In this document: piece by piece, positions 13,513-29,932 of the stretch
Numbering within the stretch: the first letter of the stretch is position 1
Layout: each line of letters opens with the position of its first letter
Virus genome (UHGV): UHGV-0206691
Origin: a virus
DNA: 45,469 nt
Direction: 5' to 3' (one strand)
Program-made: the position numbers and the translations under genes
Notes under the pieces: generated by a model
Database searches by the model: none
Seen by the model: only the letters and a program-made list of their open reading frames with translations
What the model was told of the DNA's origin: nothing

Positions 13513-13800
13513 ATGAGTACGCCTGAGGGCAAGATTCAGAAATACGCAAAAGACAGATTCGAGGCCCTGGGGGGCCTCGTACGAAAATTGTCGTACGAAA
13601 ATAGAGTGGGGGCCCCCGACCTGCTGGTAATCCTCCCCGGCGGCATCATCTGGTTCGTAGAGGTTAAGAAAGACGGAAGCACGAAGCCTGACCCGCATCA
13701 GTTACGGGAGCACGAGCGGATGCGTAAACGCGGCGCGAATGTTTTTGTCGTTGGTTCGTTTAAACAGGTTGACGACCTAATAGCGAACTATTATAGTTAG
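13513..13800 (+). CDS. VRR-NUC domain nuclease
   Basis: ORF track 13504..13800 trimmed to ATG after GGGAGGGG; PDLLVILPGGIIWFVEVKK PD-(D/E)XK core. Confidence 0.65.
   Translation: MSTPEGKIQKYAKDRFEALGGLVRKLSYENRVGAPDLLVILPGGIIWFVEVKKDGSTKPDPHQLREHERMRKRGANVFVVGSFKQVDDLIANYYS
13769..13797 (+). promoter_or_regulatory. sigma70-type promoter TTGACG-N17-TATAGT with AATAG-N4-CTATT inverted repeat in spacer
   Basis: ttgacgACCTAATAGCGAACTATtatagt inside the 3' end of the VRR-NUC gene, upstream of gene 13831. Confidence 0.55.
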
Positions 13801-23703: not shown

Positions 23704-25989
23704 TTAATACCCCGGCTGACCGCGAGTAGCGCGGCGAGCTTTAGAAATCGGTGAGTTGTTATCCTGTAACTGCGACGCTACTGTTTCACTGATTATAATA
23801 CGTAAACGCCCTTCGTCATCACGTTCTGTTACAGCAGAATCTACGCGCCCCGTAGTGTTATTAACTATAGTGACGTTATCACCGCCGGGCTGGCCGCCGT
23901 TTTGCCCCATAATTTCTTTCATCTGCTGCGCAGTGCGCACACGTGACGCACCAGCAGGCATGATAACTTCTGGTTTACCGCGTTCAGCGATGGTGGAAGC
24001 CTGCCCCGCAGATAACTGACCCCCCTGCTCACGTGCCGAGCGGATTTTGGCGATATTAGCCAGCCCCGCGGCAACGGCGGTGGCGGCAGCTACAGGAGCC
24101 AGGAATGGGCCGACAACAGGGATAGCGGCCGTTGACTTATATGCCTCAATAGCCGATGTGTACGTGGCGATAGTGGCCTGTGCGATAGCAAACGCCTTGT
24201 ATGCGGTGGACGCCTCGCCAAATGCCGTTTTAGCATTAGCCGCCATATCACCAAAAGAGCTACCTAAAGCCTCGGCTCGCTTCGTGGCATACTGCTCATT
24301 GATAGCGTTAAGCGCCGCTTGATACTGTTCCTCGTTAATCAACCCCTGTTCACGGTATTTATCTGCGACCGCCAGTTTCTGCTGTTCCTGGATGTCGAGA
24401 AGCTCAAGCTCAGCGGCGTTCTGGCCCATAATCTGAGCCATGAAGTCGTCGCCTTTCTGCTGTTTTTCCTGGGCTTCTTTCTGGCGTTTATCCAGTTCAT
24501 CTTGTCGTTTTTGCCCTGCTTCGAGGACAATAGCCGTTTTTGCTTGCTCGTATTCTTTCAGTGACAACGCGCCCTGGCTGTAGAACTCTTTTGCTTTAGC
24601 CAGTTTCTGCTGTTCCTGCGCGTCGATAGCCTTTAACTCATCGTTGTTCTGGCGGGCCAAAGTGTCGAGGTAATCTTGCGCCTGATTCCGTAGTTGTTCT
24701 GCTTTCTTGGCGGCGGCTTTTGCTGCTTTATCGTCGGTGTTTCCCGCCCCGTCAGTTCCGCCCTTTTTATTAACAAGACTGGCTAAGTCAATTTCTTGCT
24801 TCTTGCGCTCGTTGTACTGCTTGCGCTGCTCCTCAATTTCTTTCTTACGCTGCTTAGACCTGTTAGTAATGGCTTGTGATTCGGCCTCTGCACGTTTTAT
24901 GCTGGCGTCGTATGCGGCGTCAGCCTCCGCGGTCAGTTTTTTAAATGTGAGCGCCGCCGTTTTGCTCGGGTCAAACACATCAGCAAGGGTCTGGCCTAAC
25001 GCTACTGCGTAGTCGTCAATGCGCTGGAACCACGCAATAACCTCGTGGAATGTCTGCTGGATATCTGGCAACCACTCTCGGATAGCGTCCGGGATAGCTC
25101 CCAGCGAGTCTGACATATCTGTGGATTTGTTCTCAGTGTCGTATGCCAGGTCATTCAAGGCATCAGAAATAAACTTGAACGATTCATTGAACAGTGTCAC
25201 CCAATCCTGGAGCGTGGCGGCGATCTCATTAGACGCGATAGCGTCGGTGAGTGCCGTGATAGCATCTTCCGCCGTTGCCGCTTGCGCACCTACCGCGTCA
25301 CCGAAACCGGATTGCGCTACGGCAAGAACAAGGCCATCGAAGGAGTCCGCCAGACTCGATAACTGACCATCTAAGGTCTTCGAGCGCGTTTCCATCGCCC
25401 CGGCGAAATCAGTGTTACCGATATTTAGCAGGTATTTCTGAATCTCTTCGGAGTTCTTTTTAACCGTGGTGGTAACACCGCGGAACGTGAAAGAAACTGT
25501 ATCCGCCTGTTGGGAAGACTTGATGCCAAACTCTTTTAAGCGTTCAAACTCAAAGGTACTGGCGTCCGCTACGGCCTCAATCATCTGATTAAGGTCTTTG
25601 CCCATCGCCGCAGCGGTGTTGCCGTAGGAGATTAACGCCTCTTTGCTGGGGTTAAGACCTAGCGCCACGAGCTTGGTAAACCCCTCGACCGCCTGGTTAA
25701 GACCGTATGGTGTTTCTTTTGCGAACTGTTGCAGGACGCTGAAAGCCTTCGCCGCATTCTCCGCGCTTCCGGTCATTGTGATGAGGCCGGAATTCAGCTT
25801 ATCGAAGTTGCGCTGAGAGTCCACCAGCGCACTGAACACCTGCTTGGCGGTTTCCAGACTGACAACGGCGGCGGCAGCAGCCCCCGCCGCCTTGGTAAGC
25901 CCGTTCAGTTGTGATGTGGTTTTATCGACGCCAGTCGATGATACTCGTACTATCAAGCTAGCGGTATCAGCCATGATTTCTACCTTCAA
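23704..25989 (-). CDS. tail tape measure protein
   Basis: ORF track; 761 aa, Ala/Gln-rich coiled-coil, largest gene of tail module, preceded by chaperone pair; true start may be MADTAS about 15 nt inside. Confidence 0.8.
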   Translation of the reverse strand: MKVEIMADTASLIVRVSSTGVDKTTSQLNGLTKAAGAAAAAVVSLETAKQVFSALVDSQRNFDKLNSGLITMTGSAENAAKAFSVLQQFAKETPYGLNQAVEGFTKLVALGLNPSKEALISYGNTAAAMGKDLNQMIEAVADASTFEFERLKEFGIKSSQQADTVSFTFRGVTTTVKKNSEEIQKYLLNIGNTDFAGAMETRSKTLDGQLSSLADSFDGLVLAVAQSGFGDAVGAQAATAEDAITALTDAIASNEIAATLQDWVTLFNESFKFISDALNDLAYDTENKSTDMSDSLGAIPDAIREWLPDIQQTFHEVIAWFQRIDDYAVALGQTLADVFDPSKTAALTFKKLTAEADAAYDASIKRAEAESQAITNRSKQRKKEIEEQRKQYNERKKQEIDLASLVNKKGGTDGAGNTDDKAAKAAAKKAEQLRNQAQDYLDTLARQNNDELKAIDAQEQQKLAKAKEFYSQGALSLKEYEQAKTAIVLEAGQKRQDELDKRQKEAQEKQQKGDDFMAQIMGQNAAELELLDIQEQQKLAVADKYREQGLINEEQYQAALNAINEQYATKRAEALGSSFGDMAANAKTAFGEASTAYKAFAIAQATIATYTSAIEAYKSTAAIPVVGPFLAPVAAATAVAAGLANIAKIRSAREQGGQLSAGQASTIAERGKPEVIMPAGASRVRTAQQMKEIMGQNGGQPGGDNVTIVNNTTGRVDSAVTERDDEGRLRIIISETVASQLQDNNSPISKARRATRGQPGY

Positions 25990-26299
25990 AGATTGCTTCT
26001 AAGCCCATGATAATGTCTATCTCGAACAGGCTAAGCTGTTTTTGCGTAACATCGAGATAGGCTTTCAGGTCTTGCCACGTAACGGATTCTCTTGCAAACA
26101 ATACTACAGCGTCCTCGCGCACGTGTCGCGTAAACTTAATGTCGCAGTACGTTTCAAAGGTGGATATAAAAAGGGGCGGGCATTCCGGCCCACCCCGTCG
26201 CGCTGCACGTTTTTTCTTATCGATTACACCCATCGCGATAAGCGCCTGTTCGTGACCGTCAGCTATAGAATCAAATTCTCTGATTTTATGCTTATCCAC
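25967..26299 (-). CDS. tail assembly chaperone, T-frame (possible -1 frameshift extension of 26332..26748)
   Basis: ORF track; -1 frame relative to upstream chaperone stays open across its stop; GGAAAAG at end of upstream gene. Confidence 0.4.
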   Translation of the reverse strand: MDKHKIREFDSIADGHEQALIAMGVIDKKKRAARRGGPECPPLFISTFETYCDIKFTRHVREDAVVLFARESVTWQDLKAYLDVTQKQLSLFEIDIIMGLEAIFEGRNHG

Positions 26300-26331
26300 A
26301 AACTCGTAGGTGGCGAACCTGTACAGCGCGT

Positions 26332-26748
26332 CTACTTTTCCTGTAATGCTTTGCGCTCGGCGTTATGGAACGCAGCTACCTGTGTGCCTAATGCCTTAAA
26401 CTGGTCCAGCAATTTGTTAAATGCTTCTTTAGAGAAAGGCTCATCAAAACTCCAGCCGTTTACGACTTCTGCCGCAAGTTGTCGGTTGAGGTCTTCCGCC
26501 AGTTCGTTAATCGCCAGGTTATATTCAGTATAGTCGCCTGATTCTTTGGCGGCTTTTTCCAGTTCTTCGAAACGCGCCAACCCGCGACGGTACGCAATAA
26601 TGAAAGCACGCCCAGCTTTAACGGCGGCATCCGCATCCGGATTTACAACGTTAAGCCACTCCCCTGAGTCTTCACCATTTGGTAGGAGAATGGGCATCTT
26701 CTTGCCCACCAACGCTTTCTCTTCGAAATAAAAATCAGAAAGTTTCAT
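26332..26748 (-). CDS. tail assembly chaperone (gpG-like)
   Basis: ORF track; acidic 138-aa protein directly upstream of tape measure. Confidence 0.5.
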   Translation of the reverse strand: MKLSDFYFEEKALVGKKMPILLPNGEDSGEWLNVVNPDADAAVKAGRAFIIAYRRGLARFEELEKAAKESGDYTEYNLAINELAEDLNRQLAAEVVNGWSFDEPFSKEAFNKLLDQFKALGTQVAAFHNAERKALQEK

Positions 26749-26854
26749 TCTTTAATCCTTTGGTTAAGAGGTTACTGGTTAAGATGGACGCGCCAGACGG
26801 GAACCACCCGCTTTTCGTGTGCGACACTAGGCGCAAACTTATTCTAGCACACTA

Positions 26855-26883
26855 CTTGCGCGCCCCAATATAATAGGGTACTA
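26855..26883 (+). promoter_or_regulatory. early-class promoter TTGCGC-N17-TACTAT driving accessory cassette
   Basis: cTTGCGCgccccaatataatagggTACTATtcactta; matches promoters at 3272 (minus), 36202 and 38070. Confidence 0.55.
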
Positions 26884-26914
26884 TTCACTTACACCAACAA
26901 TGAAGGGGTTTAAA

Positions 26915-27106
26915 ATGTCCAGTTTACCAGTTTCCTTAATTCTGTTTGCACTGCTAGCCTATTTTGCGCCTTTCCTGGTTGCATATTTCCGCGACCATAA
27001 AGCGAAGTTAGCGATATTCATGGCCAACCTGTTTCTCGGTTGGATTCTTCTGCCGTGGGTATTTATTTTAATCTGGGCTTGCAACTCGAATGTCAAAGAG
27101 AAGTGA
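26915..27106 (+). CDS. Imm-like superinfection-immunity family small membrane protein (63 aa, 2 TM)
   Basis: ORF track 26900..27106 trimmed to ATG with GAAGGGG RBS; RDHKAKLAIFMANLFLGWILLPWVFILIWA resembles recalled Imm-family motif. Confidence 0.5.
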   Translation: MSSLPVSLILFALLAYFAPFLVAYFRDHKAKLAIFMANLFLGWILLPWVFILIWACNSNVKEK

Positions 27107-27143
27107 GCTAGTATAGGACAAATCCTAAGCACGAGGAATAAGC

Positions 27144-28274
27144 ATGGCCCGGAAGAAAATAACCGACGAACAGTTGCAGGAAGAATTGAACGCCGGTATG
27201 AAGAATATCGACATCGCCCGTAAATACGGCATCTCGGACCGCGTTATTCGCATCCGTAAAGCGAAGCTGGCTAAGAAAGGCGTAGGCCACGGGCGCGACG
27301 TTAGCCACCTTGTACCAGATGGCTACAAGATTAAAGGTACATCGTCGCTGGTTGATGAGTTCGGCAACACTAAGCTGCAATGGGTTAAGACCGACACCGA
27401 TGCTGAACGTCAGGTCGAGTTGATGAAAGCCGTAATCGAAGGCATGAAGTCAGAGATTACACCAGTTGCGCCTGTTAAAGCGACTCGAGCCAAACGCGAC
27501 GATAAACTACTCAATCTTTACACGGTATCTGATTTTCATCTCGGTATGCTGGCATGGGCTGACGAGAGCGGCGACGACTGGGATATGAAAATCGCGGAAG
27601 ACATGTTCTCTCGATGGTTCGACGCGGCGTTTCAGAAAGCACCGGATGCAGGAACAGGAGTTATTAACCTGCTTGGCGACCTTGCACACTTCGATAGTCT
27701 GGATGCCGTTACACCCGCGAGCGGTCATATTCTTGACGCGGACACGCGCTACCAGAAACTGGTCCGCTACATGATTCGTATGGTTCGCCGTGTTGTCGAT
27801 ATGGCACTTGTTAAGCATAAGAATGTTCGCTTGCTTATCGTGCAAGGGAACCACGACGAAAGCGGAATGATTTGGTTAGCTGAGATGTTCAGTACACTAT
27901 ACGACAACGAGCCGCGCGTGTTAGTAGATACGTCGCCGGATGTTTACAAGATGGTGCAACACGGCAAAACGACGTTGTTCTTTACACACGGACATAAATG
28001 CCGGTTTGAGGTGGTAGAACCCATTATGATCGCTAAGTTCAGAAAAGCATTTGGCGAAAGCGAGTACAGTTATGCGCATGTCGGACATCTCCACCACCAA
28101 AAGATTGTAGAAAGTAGGAATATGGTAGTGGAGCAGCATCGCACTCTCGCGGCGAAAGATGCATATGCTTCTCGCGGCGGGTGGATGTCAGGTCGGAGTG
28201 CAAACGTAATTACTTATAGCGCCGAATATGGAGAGGTCGCACGTTTAACTATTTCACCGGAGATGTTGGGATGA
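27144..28274 (+). CDS. HTH-fused calcineurin-like metallophosphoesterase
   Basis: ORF track; N-terminal HTH (IDIARKYGISDRVIRIRKAKL); metallophosphoesterase motifs SDFHLG, GDLAHFD, GNHDE, THGHK, GHLHH in canonical order. Confidence 0.75.
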   Translation: MARKKITDEQLQEELNAGMKNIDIARKYGISDRVIRIRKAKLAKKGVGHGRDVSHLVPDGYKIKGTSSLVDEFGNTKLQWVKTDTDAERQVELMKAVIEGMKSEITPVAPVKATRAKRDDKLLNLYTVSDFHLGMLAWADESGDDWDMKIAEDMFSRWFDAAFQKAPDAGTGVINLLGDLAHFDSLDAVTPASGHILDADTRYQKLVRYMIRMVRRVVDMALVKHKNVRLLIVQGNHDESGMIWLAEMFSTLYDNEPRVLVDTSPDVYKMVQHGKTTLFFTHGHKCRFEVVEPIMIAKFRKAFGESEYSYAHVGHLHHQKIVESRNMVVEQHRTLAAKDAYASRGGWMSGRSANVITYSAEYGEVARLTISPEMLG

Positions 28275-28504
28275 TTAAAGCCCTGTGGATTTTCATCGTA
28301 ATGCCGCTTTTGATGCTGTTTGTGCTAGCGGCTGCGGTGCTGTTTCTAGCGGTAGCCTTGTTCTTTATTACTATGGACCCGTCCGTATTCTTTAGCTTGT
28401 ACAAAGAGGTTACACAAGCGGACCTGACAGGCATACGTCTTCTGTACGTAGTCGCCGTCGTAGTTTCTGCGGTTATCATTCTGGCAGAGGAAAGTGATTT
28501 ATGA
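28271..28504 (+). CDS. small membrane protein (77 aa)
   Basis: ORF track; ATGA overlap with upstream gene; hydrophobic segments. Confidence 0.5.
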   Translation: MIKALWIFIVMPLLMLFVLAAAVLFLAVALFFITMDPSVFFSLYKEVTQADLTGIRLLYVVAVVVSAVIILAEESDL

Positions 28505-28731
28505 CTTCAAAATACAACCGCACAATGACAAACACTCACGGTAGCACTATGACAGTAGATGTTTACGATGTGCTACGTGCCTTCGACATCCGTGACCCTG
28601 CGCTACAACATGCATTGAAGAAACTATTGTGCATGGGCTTGCGGGGGCACAAGGACACCGGAACAGACTTAGCGGAAGCAATTGAAAGCCTGGAGAAGTT
28701 ACGGGAGTATCGAAGTAACATTGATGAGTGA
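28501..28731 (+). CDS. hypothetical protein (76 aa)
   Basis: ORF track; ATGA overlap with upstream gene; terminator follows. Confidence 0.5.
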   Translation: MTSKYNRTMTNTHGSTMTVDVYDVLRAFDIRDPALQHALKKLLCMGLRGHKDTGTDLAEAIESLEKLREYRSNIDE

Positions 28732-28734
28732 TAA

Positions 28735-28762
28735 AAAGGCCCCGAAAGGGGCCTTAGTTTTA
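28735..28762. terminator. bidirectional hairpin terminator closing accessory cassette
   Basis: aaaaGGCCCCgaaaGGGGCCttagtttta. Confidence 0.6.
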
Positions 28763-29932
28763 TGCGTAGGTGATACGTTGAATTACGATAGACGACTGGT
28801 ACTGGTTTCCGGTTGCCTGGCCTTCAATGGACTGAGTGATTGACTCAGGTCCGCCAATCTCTGGCGTAACCGCCGTAAGCTCTGCACGTTTCAAACTGAA
28901 AGACATAGCCCCGTTTACCCCCGCCAGAATAGAGTTAATCTCTACCTGCTGCTCGTTGATAAACTTCTGAATCATAGCCATGTCGTACAGCTTACCAGAG
29001 ATAGAGAAGGTGTTAGCCGCACGGCTACGCTCAACAAACGCTACGTTAGTGTTACCAAGTTCGAACTGGGCGGACGCGCTGTTATCATTGGTGATGGTCA
29101 GGCTGTCGCAGCGCAACGGCGTAGAGCCGTCGAACACAGAAACGTCAACCGAAGAGAACGGCTCATCAGTGAAAGTCACCGTAGAGAAATCAGAACCAGA
29201 CGGCTGCGTGGCGAGAATCTCCTGACTGCGACCGATGAACGGGAAGCTGCCAGTTACCATAGCGTTAACGGCCTGCTCAATAGTGAAGCCAGAAACTTCC
29301 ACGCCTTTGGTCAGCGTGTACGCGTCAGCCCCACCACACTGGCCTTTGTACCACGTGAGAATAGAGAACGTCTTACACTGGCTACCGGTTTCCAGCTTAT
29401 CGCCAGTTTTAGCCGCAGTAGTGGCAGTCTCAGTGGTAAGAGTATGCTGGATACCCGCACCGGTGACAACAGTTGCGCTTACCTCAGTTACGATAAACGG
29501 CTTAGCGTTGTCGCCCGTTAAGTCGGTAAACGCAATCAGGTCGCCCACTTCAACGCCGTCGGTAATAAAGCTGCCATCGGCACGGGTGAACGTCTTGCCT
29601 GCGGGTGCAACGGTAATCGATAACCCTGACAGAGAAACCCCGGACTGCCACGTAGAGCCTAAAGCACCCGCCAGCCAGTCGTCCTGGCTTTTCGAGCTAA
29701 GCTCAATAGCATATTCACCGCTAACCTGTTTGTTACCGGTGCGGATGGATGTAGTTTCACGGCTGCCATCCAGTTCGTTGGAGGTCAGTGTGTCGCGGGT
29801 AATGGCAGGAACGCCACCCGTGTTGCGCAACGGCGACCATACCGGGTTATCGGGTGTTACGCCCGGGGTCACTTCCGCCACATAGAATTGCGCGGTATTC
29901 GCGCCCTTAAAAGGAGTTGTAGCCATATTCAC
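28760..29932 (-). CDS. major tail protein
   Basis: ORF track; 390 aa, position between tail terminator-like gene and chaperones. Confidence 0.6.
   Translation of the reverse strand: MNMATTPFKGANTAQFYVAEVTPGVTPDNPVWSPLRNTGGVPAITRDTLTSNELDGSRETTSIRTGNKQVSGEYAIELSSKSQDDWLAGALGSTWQSGVSLSGLSITVAPAGKTFTRADGSFITDGVEVGDLIAFTDLTGDNAKPFIVTEVSATVVTGAGIQHTLTTETATTAAKTGDKLETGSQCKTFSILTWYKGQCGGADAYTLTKGVEVSGFTIEQAVNAMVTGSFPFIGRSQEILATQPSGSDFSTVTFTDEPFSSVDVSVFDGSTPLRCDSLTITNDNSASAQFELGNTNVAFVERSRAANTFSISGKLYDMAMIQKFINEQQVEINSILAGVNGAMSFSLKRAELTAVTPEIGGPESITQSIEGQATGNQYQSSIVIQRITYA

Follow-up and report, generated by a model that had tools for sequence, protein, structure and literature searches.

A T4 Imm homologue beside the tail chaperone and tape measure genes of a Kagunavirus phage as a candidate superinfection exclusion protein

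Our analysis indicates that a short gene at 26915..27106, on the plus strand of UHGV virus genome UHGV-0206691, almost certainly encodes a member of the Imm_superinfect family, to which the Imm protein of phage T4 belongs. By analogy with T4 Imm, its product is probably a superinfection exclusion protein. The whole of the DNA stretch that was analysed, 45,469 nucleotides in length, is referred to below as the window, and the gene as imm. The window is a genome of Kagunavirus (Guernseyvirinae), a genus of virulent E. coli siphoviruses, with DNA 85-93% identical to that of many other members, and imm is already known there as an annotated homologue. What we add concerns the family relationship, the reality and variation of the gene, its setting beside the tail chaperone and tape measure protein (TMP) genes, and how far a mechanism recently proposed for T4 may extend to it.

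The family assignment, which a preliminary description made from the sequence letters had guessed at, is borne out by profile and pairwise comparisons. A search against Pfam, the check proposed with that guess, placed residues 16-56 on positions 2-42 of the 42-position Imm_superinfect profile (PF14373; 47.5 bits, E = 1.6e-12, against a gathering threshold of 27.9 bits), and the product also matched phrog_1039, 'immunity to superinfection' (E = 5e-23). T4 Imm, taken from the T4 RefSeq record, falls on the same two models (58.2 bits for PF14373), and a single BLASTP comparison aligned the two proteins without gaps over 54 residues, with 28% identity and 50% positives (E = 3e-10). Across an alignment of 45 diverse family members, T4 Imm among them, P19, R26 and I34 do not vary, and Y16, A23, H28, N38, G42, W43, W48 and W54 are conserved in at least 90%. 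The core motif given in the preliminary description, N-x-F-L-G-W...L-I-W-A, does resemble the family consensus, NLFLGW...ALxWA, but T4 Imm itself departs from it and reads SLLFNW...FIWS. Neither NCBIfam nor PADLOC yielded a model for the product.

The likeness to T4 Imm (gene imm, 83 aa) extends to the layout of the protein, in which a hydrophobic helix at the N-terminus is followed by a basic loop and then by a hydrophobic core rich in Trp, and to individual residues: in the BLASTP alignment R33 and W50 of T4 Imm, which are needed for full exclusion, are kept as R26 and W43 in the window protein. Both proteins come from virulent phages. They differ in that the window protein is 20 residues shorter and lacks the polar C-terminal tail of T4 Imm, and in that it comes from a siphovirus with a TMP unrelated by sequence to T4 gp29. 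The genomic settings differ as well; T4 imm, which adjoins gene 42, is surrounded by early genes for nucleotide metabolism and replication, whereas the window gene lies beside the chaperone/TMP operon.

Close relatives of imm are plentiful. The protein of phage ST20 is identical to the window product, dozens of phages encode proteins that are 94-98% identical, and many of these, including the K1G RefSeq record and the BASEL collection phage Bas74, already carry the label 'superinfection immunity protein' or 'immunity to superinfection'. K1G gp23, Bas74_0023 and the other Kagunavirus orthologues are 94-100% identical within an allele type (the gene has two, described below) and occupy the same position in the same orientation, and gp24 of the Jerseyvirus Ent3, also at the same position, is 76% identical over residues 26-63. 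The annotated genes of the Guernseyvirinae differ from the window gene in nothing material, apart from some records that call the product a hypothetical protein or begin it at a 68-aa start. Homologues at 60% identity or above were detectable in about 350 phage records, against about 494 for the tail tube protein at the same level, a comparison limited by the shortness of the imm query; the gene is thus common in the subfamily, though perhaps not universal. None of 5,426 complete E. coli genomes gave a blastn match to imm, so that at the DNA level there is no sign in them of this imm lineage as a prophage gene. Genome papers repeat the imm annotation, some of them adding curious glosses, for example 'gene regulation' or 'cell lysis', and the paper describing BASEL does not discuss the gene; our searches found no published exclusion experiments on an Imm homologue from Kagunavirus, Jerseyvirus or any other of the Guernseyvirinae.

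The open reading frame starts with the ATG at 26915 and stops with the TGA at 27104-27106, and its 63-aa product reads MSSLPVSLILFALLAYFAPFLVAYFRDHKAKLAIFMANLFLGWILLPWVFILIWACNSNVKEK; the segment quoted in the preliminary description is exactly residues 26-55 of this protein. An alternative in-frame ATG at 26900 would give a product of 68 aa, and public records differ on the choice, with 68 aa annotated in Bas74 (L034:13442-13648) versus 63 aa in the K1G RefSeq record (L001:4001-4192). The start at 26915 is better supported by the sequence, because a Shine-Dalgarno motif, AAGGGG, lies at 26903..26908 on the plus strand, 6 nt 5' of that ATG, and because, when the two alleles are aligned, the upstream ATG of type B proves to lie in another frame, which is closed by a stop at the true start codon. 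Farther upstream, reading by eye picks out a candidate sigma-70 promoter at 26856..26884 on the plus strand, the strand opposite to that of the late tail genes. It consists of a -35 element TTGCGC at 26856-26861, a 17-nt spacer that contains a perfect TATAAT at 26869-26874, and a -10 element TACTAT at 26879-26884, and it is kept in both allele types; we regard it as a putative promoter of the gene island that imm heads. This candidate is absent from the output of a consensus promoter scan, whose sole plus-strand hit, at 26888-26916, was rejected as overlapping the start codon.

With just 63 codons and a consensus scan that offered no strong promoter, the frame could in principle be a chance intergenic one from which no protein is made, and this we consider vanishingly improbable. 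By the Nei-Gojobori method we compared the coding sequences of 28 orthologues, of which 24 differ from one another, drawn from 24 IMG/VR loci, three GenBank records and the window. dN/dS was 0.048 within type A, the allele of the window, 0.059 within type B and 0.045 between the types over codons 26-63, with hundreds of synonymous differences among the orthologues. Ratios of about 0.05 combined with so many synonymous changes therefore exclude a chance frame and show imm to be a real gene under purifying selection. The strength of the Pfam match, the good Shine-Dalgarno motif, the same position of the gene in Kagunavirus and in a Jerseyvirus, and the transcription of the homologue in phage K1B4 all argue in the same direction.

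The two hydrophobic segments that the preliminary description had seen in the 63-aa protein are recovered in the Kyte-Doolittle profile of the product, at about residues 3-23 and 32-56, and AlphaFold2 places helices at residues 3-25 and 29-61 with moderate confidence (mean pLDDT 75.7). The topology check suggested earlier thus gives two hydrophobic helices by both routes, as a prediction. From these profiles and the T4 alignment we delimit helix 1, a predicted N-terminal transmembrane segment (residues 3-25, 26921..26989); a charged loop, R26-D27-H28-K29-A30-K31 (26990..27007); and a conserved core helix (residues 32-61, 27008..27097) that carries N38, G42-W43, P47-W48 and W54. All three are encoded on the plus strand. 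The protein would sit in the inner membrane, and by the positive-inside rule the loop R26-K31 is predicted to be cytoplasmic with both termini outside; T4 Imm has a periplasmic N-terminus according to work cited in the preprint 10.64898/2026.03.06.709160. Structural searches added little. Foldseek, run with the AlphaFold2 model against BFVD, returned a single meaningless match (E = 8.7), as a 63-residue helical hairpin is too simple a shape, and the 45-member profile found no relative in the PDB at E values up to 1.

A small protein with two hydrophobic helices and a charged C-terminus also resembles class II holins, and the paper on K1B4 calls the homologue lysis-related, without data. A part in lysis timing, whether as holin, antiholin or protector against lysis from without, is nevertheless very unlikely: no holin family appeared among the Pfam, PHROG and NCBIfam matches, the domain that did match is Imm, and the two holins, the endolysin and the spanins of Kagunavirus are annotated at other loci, the holins and endolysin at a distant one.

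The imm gene heads a plus-strand island of four genes, 26915..28731, set within the minus-strand tail operon. The preliminary description had called it the first gene of an accessory cassette; the lead position holds, but imm itself is stable and only the distal genes vary. The second gene, 27144..28274 on the plus strand, begins 37 nt downstream of imm in the same orientation and encodes a metallophosphoesterase or 'DNA repair exonuclease' (phrog_704, E = 4.5e-166; weak Pfam Metallophos matches). Its counterparts in K1G, Bas74 and Ent3 are placed alike, and imm and the exonuclease gene occur together in this position in all 27 Kagunavirus loci examined and in one Jerseyvirus. Next comes a very hydrophobic 77-aa frame (28271..28504, plus strand) that overlaps the exonuclease stop and with which the variable distal genes begin. 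Searches of Pfam, PHROG and PADLOC gave no match to it, 25 related loci lack a counterpart, and DNA that is 69-77% identical over a stretch of it occurs in only six phage records, among them GZMU_E2010, the Kagunavirus phages LM08P1 and LM08P2, and the Salmonella phages ZCSE7 and SETP13; it is predicted to be a rare second small membrane protein of the island. The last frame, of 76 aa (28501..28731, plus strand), corresponds to the C-terminal end of phage ATPase-like families, matching only positions 150-220 of 235 in phrog_2452 and 172-237 of 246 in phrog_17613, and it looks like what is left of a longer gene, or a shortened version of one. Bas74 retains this frame directly 3' of the exonuclease gene; the distal end of the island is occupied in K1G by genes for a polynucleotide kinase and an ATP-binding protein of 184 aa, and in Ent3 by those for an HNH endonuclease and an anti-repressor.

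Beyond the island, a terminator scan found a GC-rich hairpin with a perfect 8-bp stem, AAGGCCCCgaaaGGGGCCTT, at 28736..28755, between the last island gene and the convergent tail tube gene (28760..29932, minus strand), which forms the other flank. It is likely to be a two-way terminator that closes the island transcript. If so, the chaperone/TMP operon would need a promoter in the spacer at 26749-26914, or read-through. That spacer, of about 166 nt, separates imm from the divergently oriented tail assembly chaperone gene (26332..26748, minus strand), the first gene of the leftward chaperone/TMP operon as identified from the open reading frames, K1G and Bas74. In the same operon a minus-strand frame at 23704..25989 encodes a protein of about 757-761 aa that is annotated as the TMP in K1G and Bas74 and scores 38.7 bits against Pfam TMP_3, just under the 41-bit cut-off. 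Its hydropathy profile has one long hydrophobic stretch, at about residues 598-648, which resembles the kind of segment proposed to insert into the membrane.

The spacer that separates imm from the chaperone gene contains a match to the Rfam int-alpA RNA (RF02996) at 26773-26837 on the minus strand, the strand of the chaperone/TMP operon, and the match stops 25 nt short of the chaperone start codon. In the window it scores 30.2 bits against a threshold of 35.8 bits, and copies in three Kagunavirus loci (L007:5859-5923, L024:5847-5911 and L025:5847-5911) reach 36.6 bits. The copy in the Jerseyvirus Ent3 (L028:4308-4352) is partial, at 26.2 bits, with a compensatory change from GUG/CAC to CGG/CCG in hairpin 1. 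The stretch that bears the match is 90-98% identical even where both of its flanks diverge. Bas74 annotates a 37-aa 'hypothetical protein' (13675-13788) within the spacer that holds this int-alpA-like motif, and has in addition a gene annotated as 'excisionase and transcriptional regulator'.

How a protein of this kind might act is suggested by recent work on T4 Imm, the sole family member with functional tests. In a preprint (10.64898/2026.03.06.709160), T4 Imm expressed alone excludes incoming T4; it co-purifies from membranes with a fragment of the TMP gp29, a loop of it that contains W50 is set against a hydrophobic patch on the helical-bundle domain of the TMP, and the substitutions W50A and R33A weaken exclusion (10.64898/2026.03.06.709160). 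That the window protein may block the injection of DNA by an incoming phage, as proposed in the preliminary description, can reasonably be inferred from homology, as a hypothesis. Under this model the protein would be made after infection by a Kagunavirus and inserted into the cytoplasmic membrane, and, when a related second phage adsorbs, would halt the passage of its DNA across the inner membrane; expression would have to come early enough to matter. If the T4 analogy extends to the molecular step, the protein would bind the membrane-inserting part of the incoming TMP so that a translocation channel does not form. We hold exclusion itself to be the probable role, and give TMP binding as its mechanism slightly less than an even chance. 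BLASTP detected no similarity between the window TMP and T4 gp29, so the T4-type interface cannot simply be transferred, and a shared Imm-binding domain cannot be argued from sequence.

Two other systems offer useful comparisons. HK97 gp15 is likewise a small membrane protein, encoded by a moron between the chaperone and TMP genes, a comparable placement, and according to work cited in the same preprint (10.64898/2026.03.06.709160) it blocks genome entry through the TMP. A distant relationship to Imm was considered and rejected, since hhalign gave it a probability of 1.2% over 9 columns; with one hydrophobic helix followed by a polar tail, gp15 is an analogue and not a homologue. Colicin immunity proteins may be a second analogue, being small inner-membrane proteins that stop an incoming pore-forming helical domain, although they guard against a toxin rather than a phage.

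The imm gene of Kagunavirus exists as two alleles that differ only from the ribosome-binding site to about codon 25, that is, in helix 1 (26903 to about 26995 in the window). Synonymous sites in this block are saturated between the alleles (pS 0.82), and the core of the protein is near-identical. The neighbouring TMP/chaperone block, 23704-26710 in the window, likewise comes in two types, with 54% protein identity. Among the 23 loci that could be scored (from the set L001, L003-L026), the imm allele agrees with the TMP type in 21; the other two, L007 and L023, are natural recombinants in which the TMP and Imm types do not correspond. Between the two blocks lies a conserved stretch of 150 bp that is 90-98% identical. 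We regard the association as a lead, since physical linkage over about 150 bp could explain it.

One reading of this pattern is that siphovirus Imm genes are partnered with particular TMPs, on the model of colicin/immunity pairing, with an invariant core that blocks TMPs generally and a swappable helix 1 that tunes specificity. The core surface would then comprise R26, G42-W43, W48 and W54, and at a late stage of infection Imm might in addition shield the host cell from the TMP made in it. We consider this partnering speculative and rather unlikely to be correct as a whole.

The shielding function could also be the entire role of the protein: Imm would bind or handle the phage's own newly made TMP and so spare the inner membrane from its pore-forming segment before lysis, much as colicin immunity proteins guard the cells that make a colicin. 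The allele concordance fits such a role, as do the tight placement of imm against chaperone/TMP genes, in the window and in several further siphovirus lineages, and the finding that co-expressed T4 Imm stabilises the TMP fragment, in a study whose authors themselves draw the colicin-immunity analogy (10.64898/2026.03.06.709160). Timing could be counted on the same side, and against exclusion, in that RNA-seq of the close relative K1B4 classes the imm homologue as peaking after 100 min, in contrast to the early pattern of T4 imm; that experiment used an MOI of 100 and coarse time points for a phage with a 30-min latent period, and we give it little weight either way. Several points count against producer protection, which we judge distinctly unlikely. 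T4 Imm on its own excludes incoming T4; imm lies on the strand opposite to the TMP operon and is paired with the gene of a nucleic-acid enzyme, unlike what late co-expression would suggest; and the mismatched recombinants exist, while linkage may account for the co-variation.

Imm-family genes lie near TMP genes in other phages as well, which, together with the position of imm in the window, lends indirect support to TMP binding. In Skatevirus, a different siphovirus genus, the TMP/chaperone genes and the major tail gene flank a comparable island on the reverse strand that includes an Imm gene, and in Pseudomonas phage YMC11/02/R656 the gene directly 5' of a lambda-type TMP encodes a 195-residue protein that combines an Imm domain with a zinc ribbon. 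A profile-guided scan of IMG/VR gave 72 diverse Imm-family loci, 57 of them with enough flanking sequence to judge. A TMP gene lay within 750 bp of the Imm-family gene in 18 of the 72, and in 16 of the 57 that could be assessed; seven of the TMPs at the 18 loci were confirmed with PHROGs, and the others through their similarity to those seven. At 40% identity the TMPs of the 18 loci form five clusters, but at 70% identity their Imm proteins belong to just 3 of 34 clusters. Adjacency is therefore recurrent but not general, and reflects few independent events. The imm gene is away from the TMP gene in T4, in an Obolenskvirus (an Acinetobacter myovirus) and in another siphovirus, and a clear PF14373 member (61.7 bits) occurs at L033:4923-5165 in the N4-like podovirus EC1-UPM (Gamaleyavirus), which has no TMP; this last member is a caveat for a mechanism that works through the TMP only. 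The EC1-UPM gene sits amid nucleotide-metabolism genes (dCTP deaminase, thymidylate synthase), much as T4 imm sits beside gene 42. Some TMP-adjacent Imm genes, at L029:3911-4498, L078:6980-7330, L079:6941-7291, L080 and L083, have extra C-terminal parts, one being the zinc ribbon of YMC11/02/R656, and some of these tails are rich in charged residues and look like a SHOCT-type short C-terminal domain.

This breadth raises the question of whether PF14373 is instead a general small membrane module that serves here in some other host-takeover or membrane function, with no part in exclusion. The family comprises 7,747 clusters at 50% identity, a size that also weakens the case for TMP binding and that became apparent only in an exhaustive profile search, a word-indexed protein search having returned 9 close relatives. 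Its members are 58-332 aa long, and some carry additional domains, for instance zinc ribbons or SHOCT-like tails. Only one of them, T4 Imm, has been tested, and the most conserved residues are common to phages with unrelated TMPs or none, which would fit a structural role equally well. We nonetheless consider a non-exclusion role unlikely: every member examined came from phage records or viral contigs, exclusion by T4 Imm depends on exactly the conserved residues, and the recurrent placement in tail modules beside TMP genes is hard to explain otherwise. Superinfection exclusion remains the reading we prefer.

Taken alone, the window gene matters little, as a routine and already annotated T4 Imm homologue in a well-sampled phage genus. 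In phage cocktails such a gene predicts mutual exclusion of related phages within one cell. Its wider interest lies in the genus itself: Kagunavirus phages are small (41-44 kb) and virulent and are represented in the BASEL collection, which is propagated on E. coli K-12 derivatives, and they would provide a convenient siphovirus system in which to ask whether the TMP binding proposed for T4 extends to non-contractile phages with unrelated TMPs.
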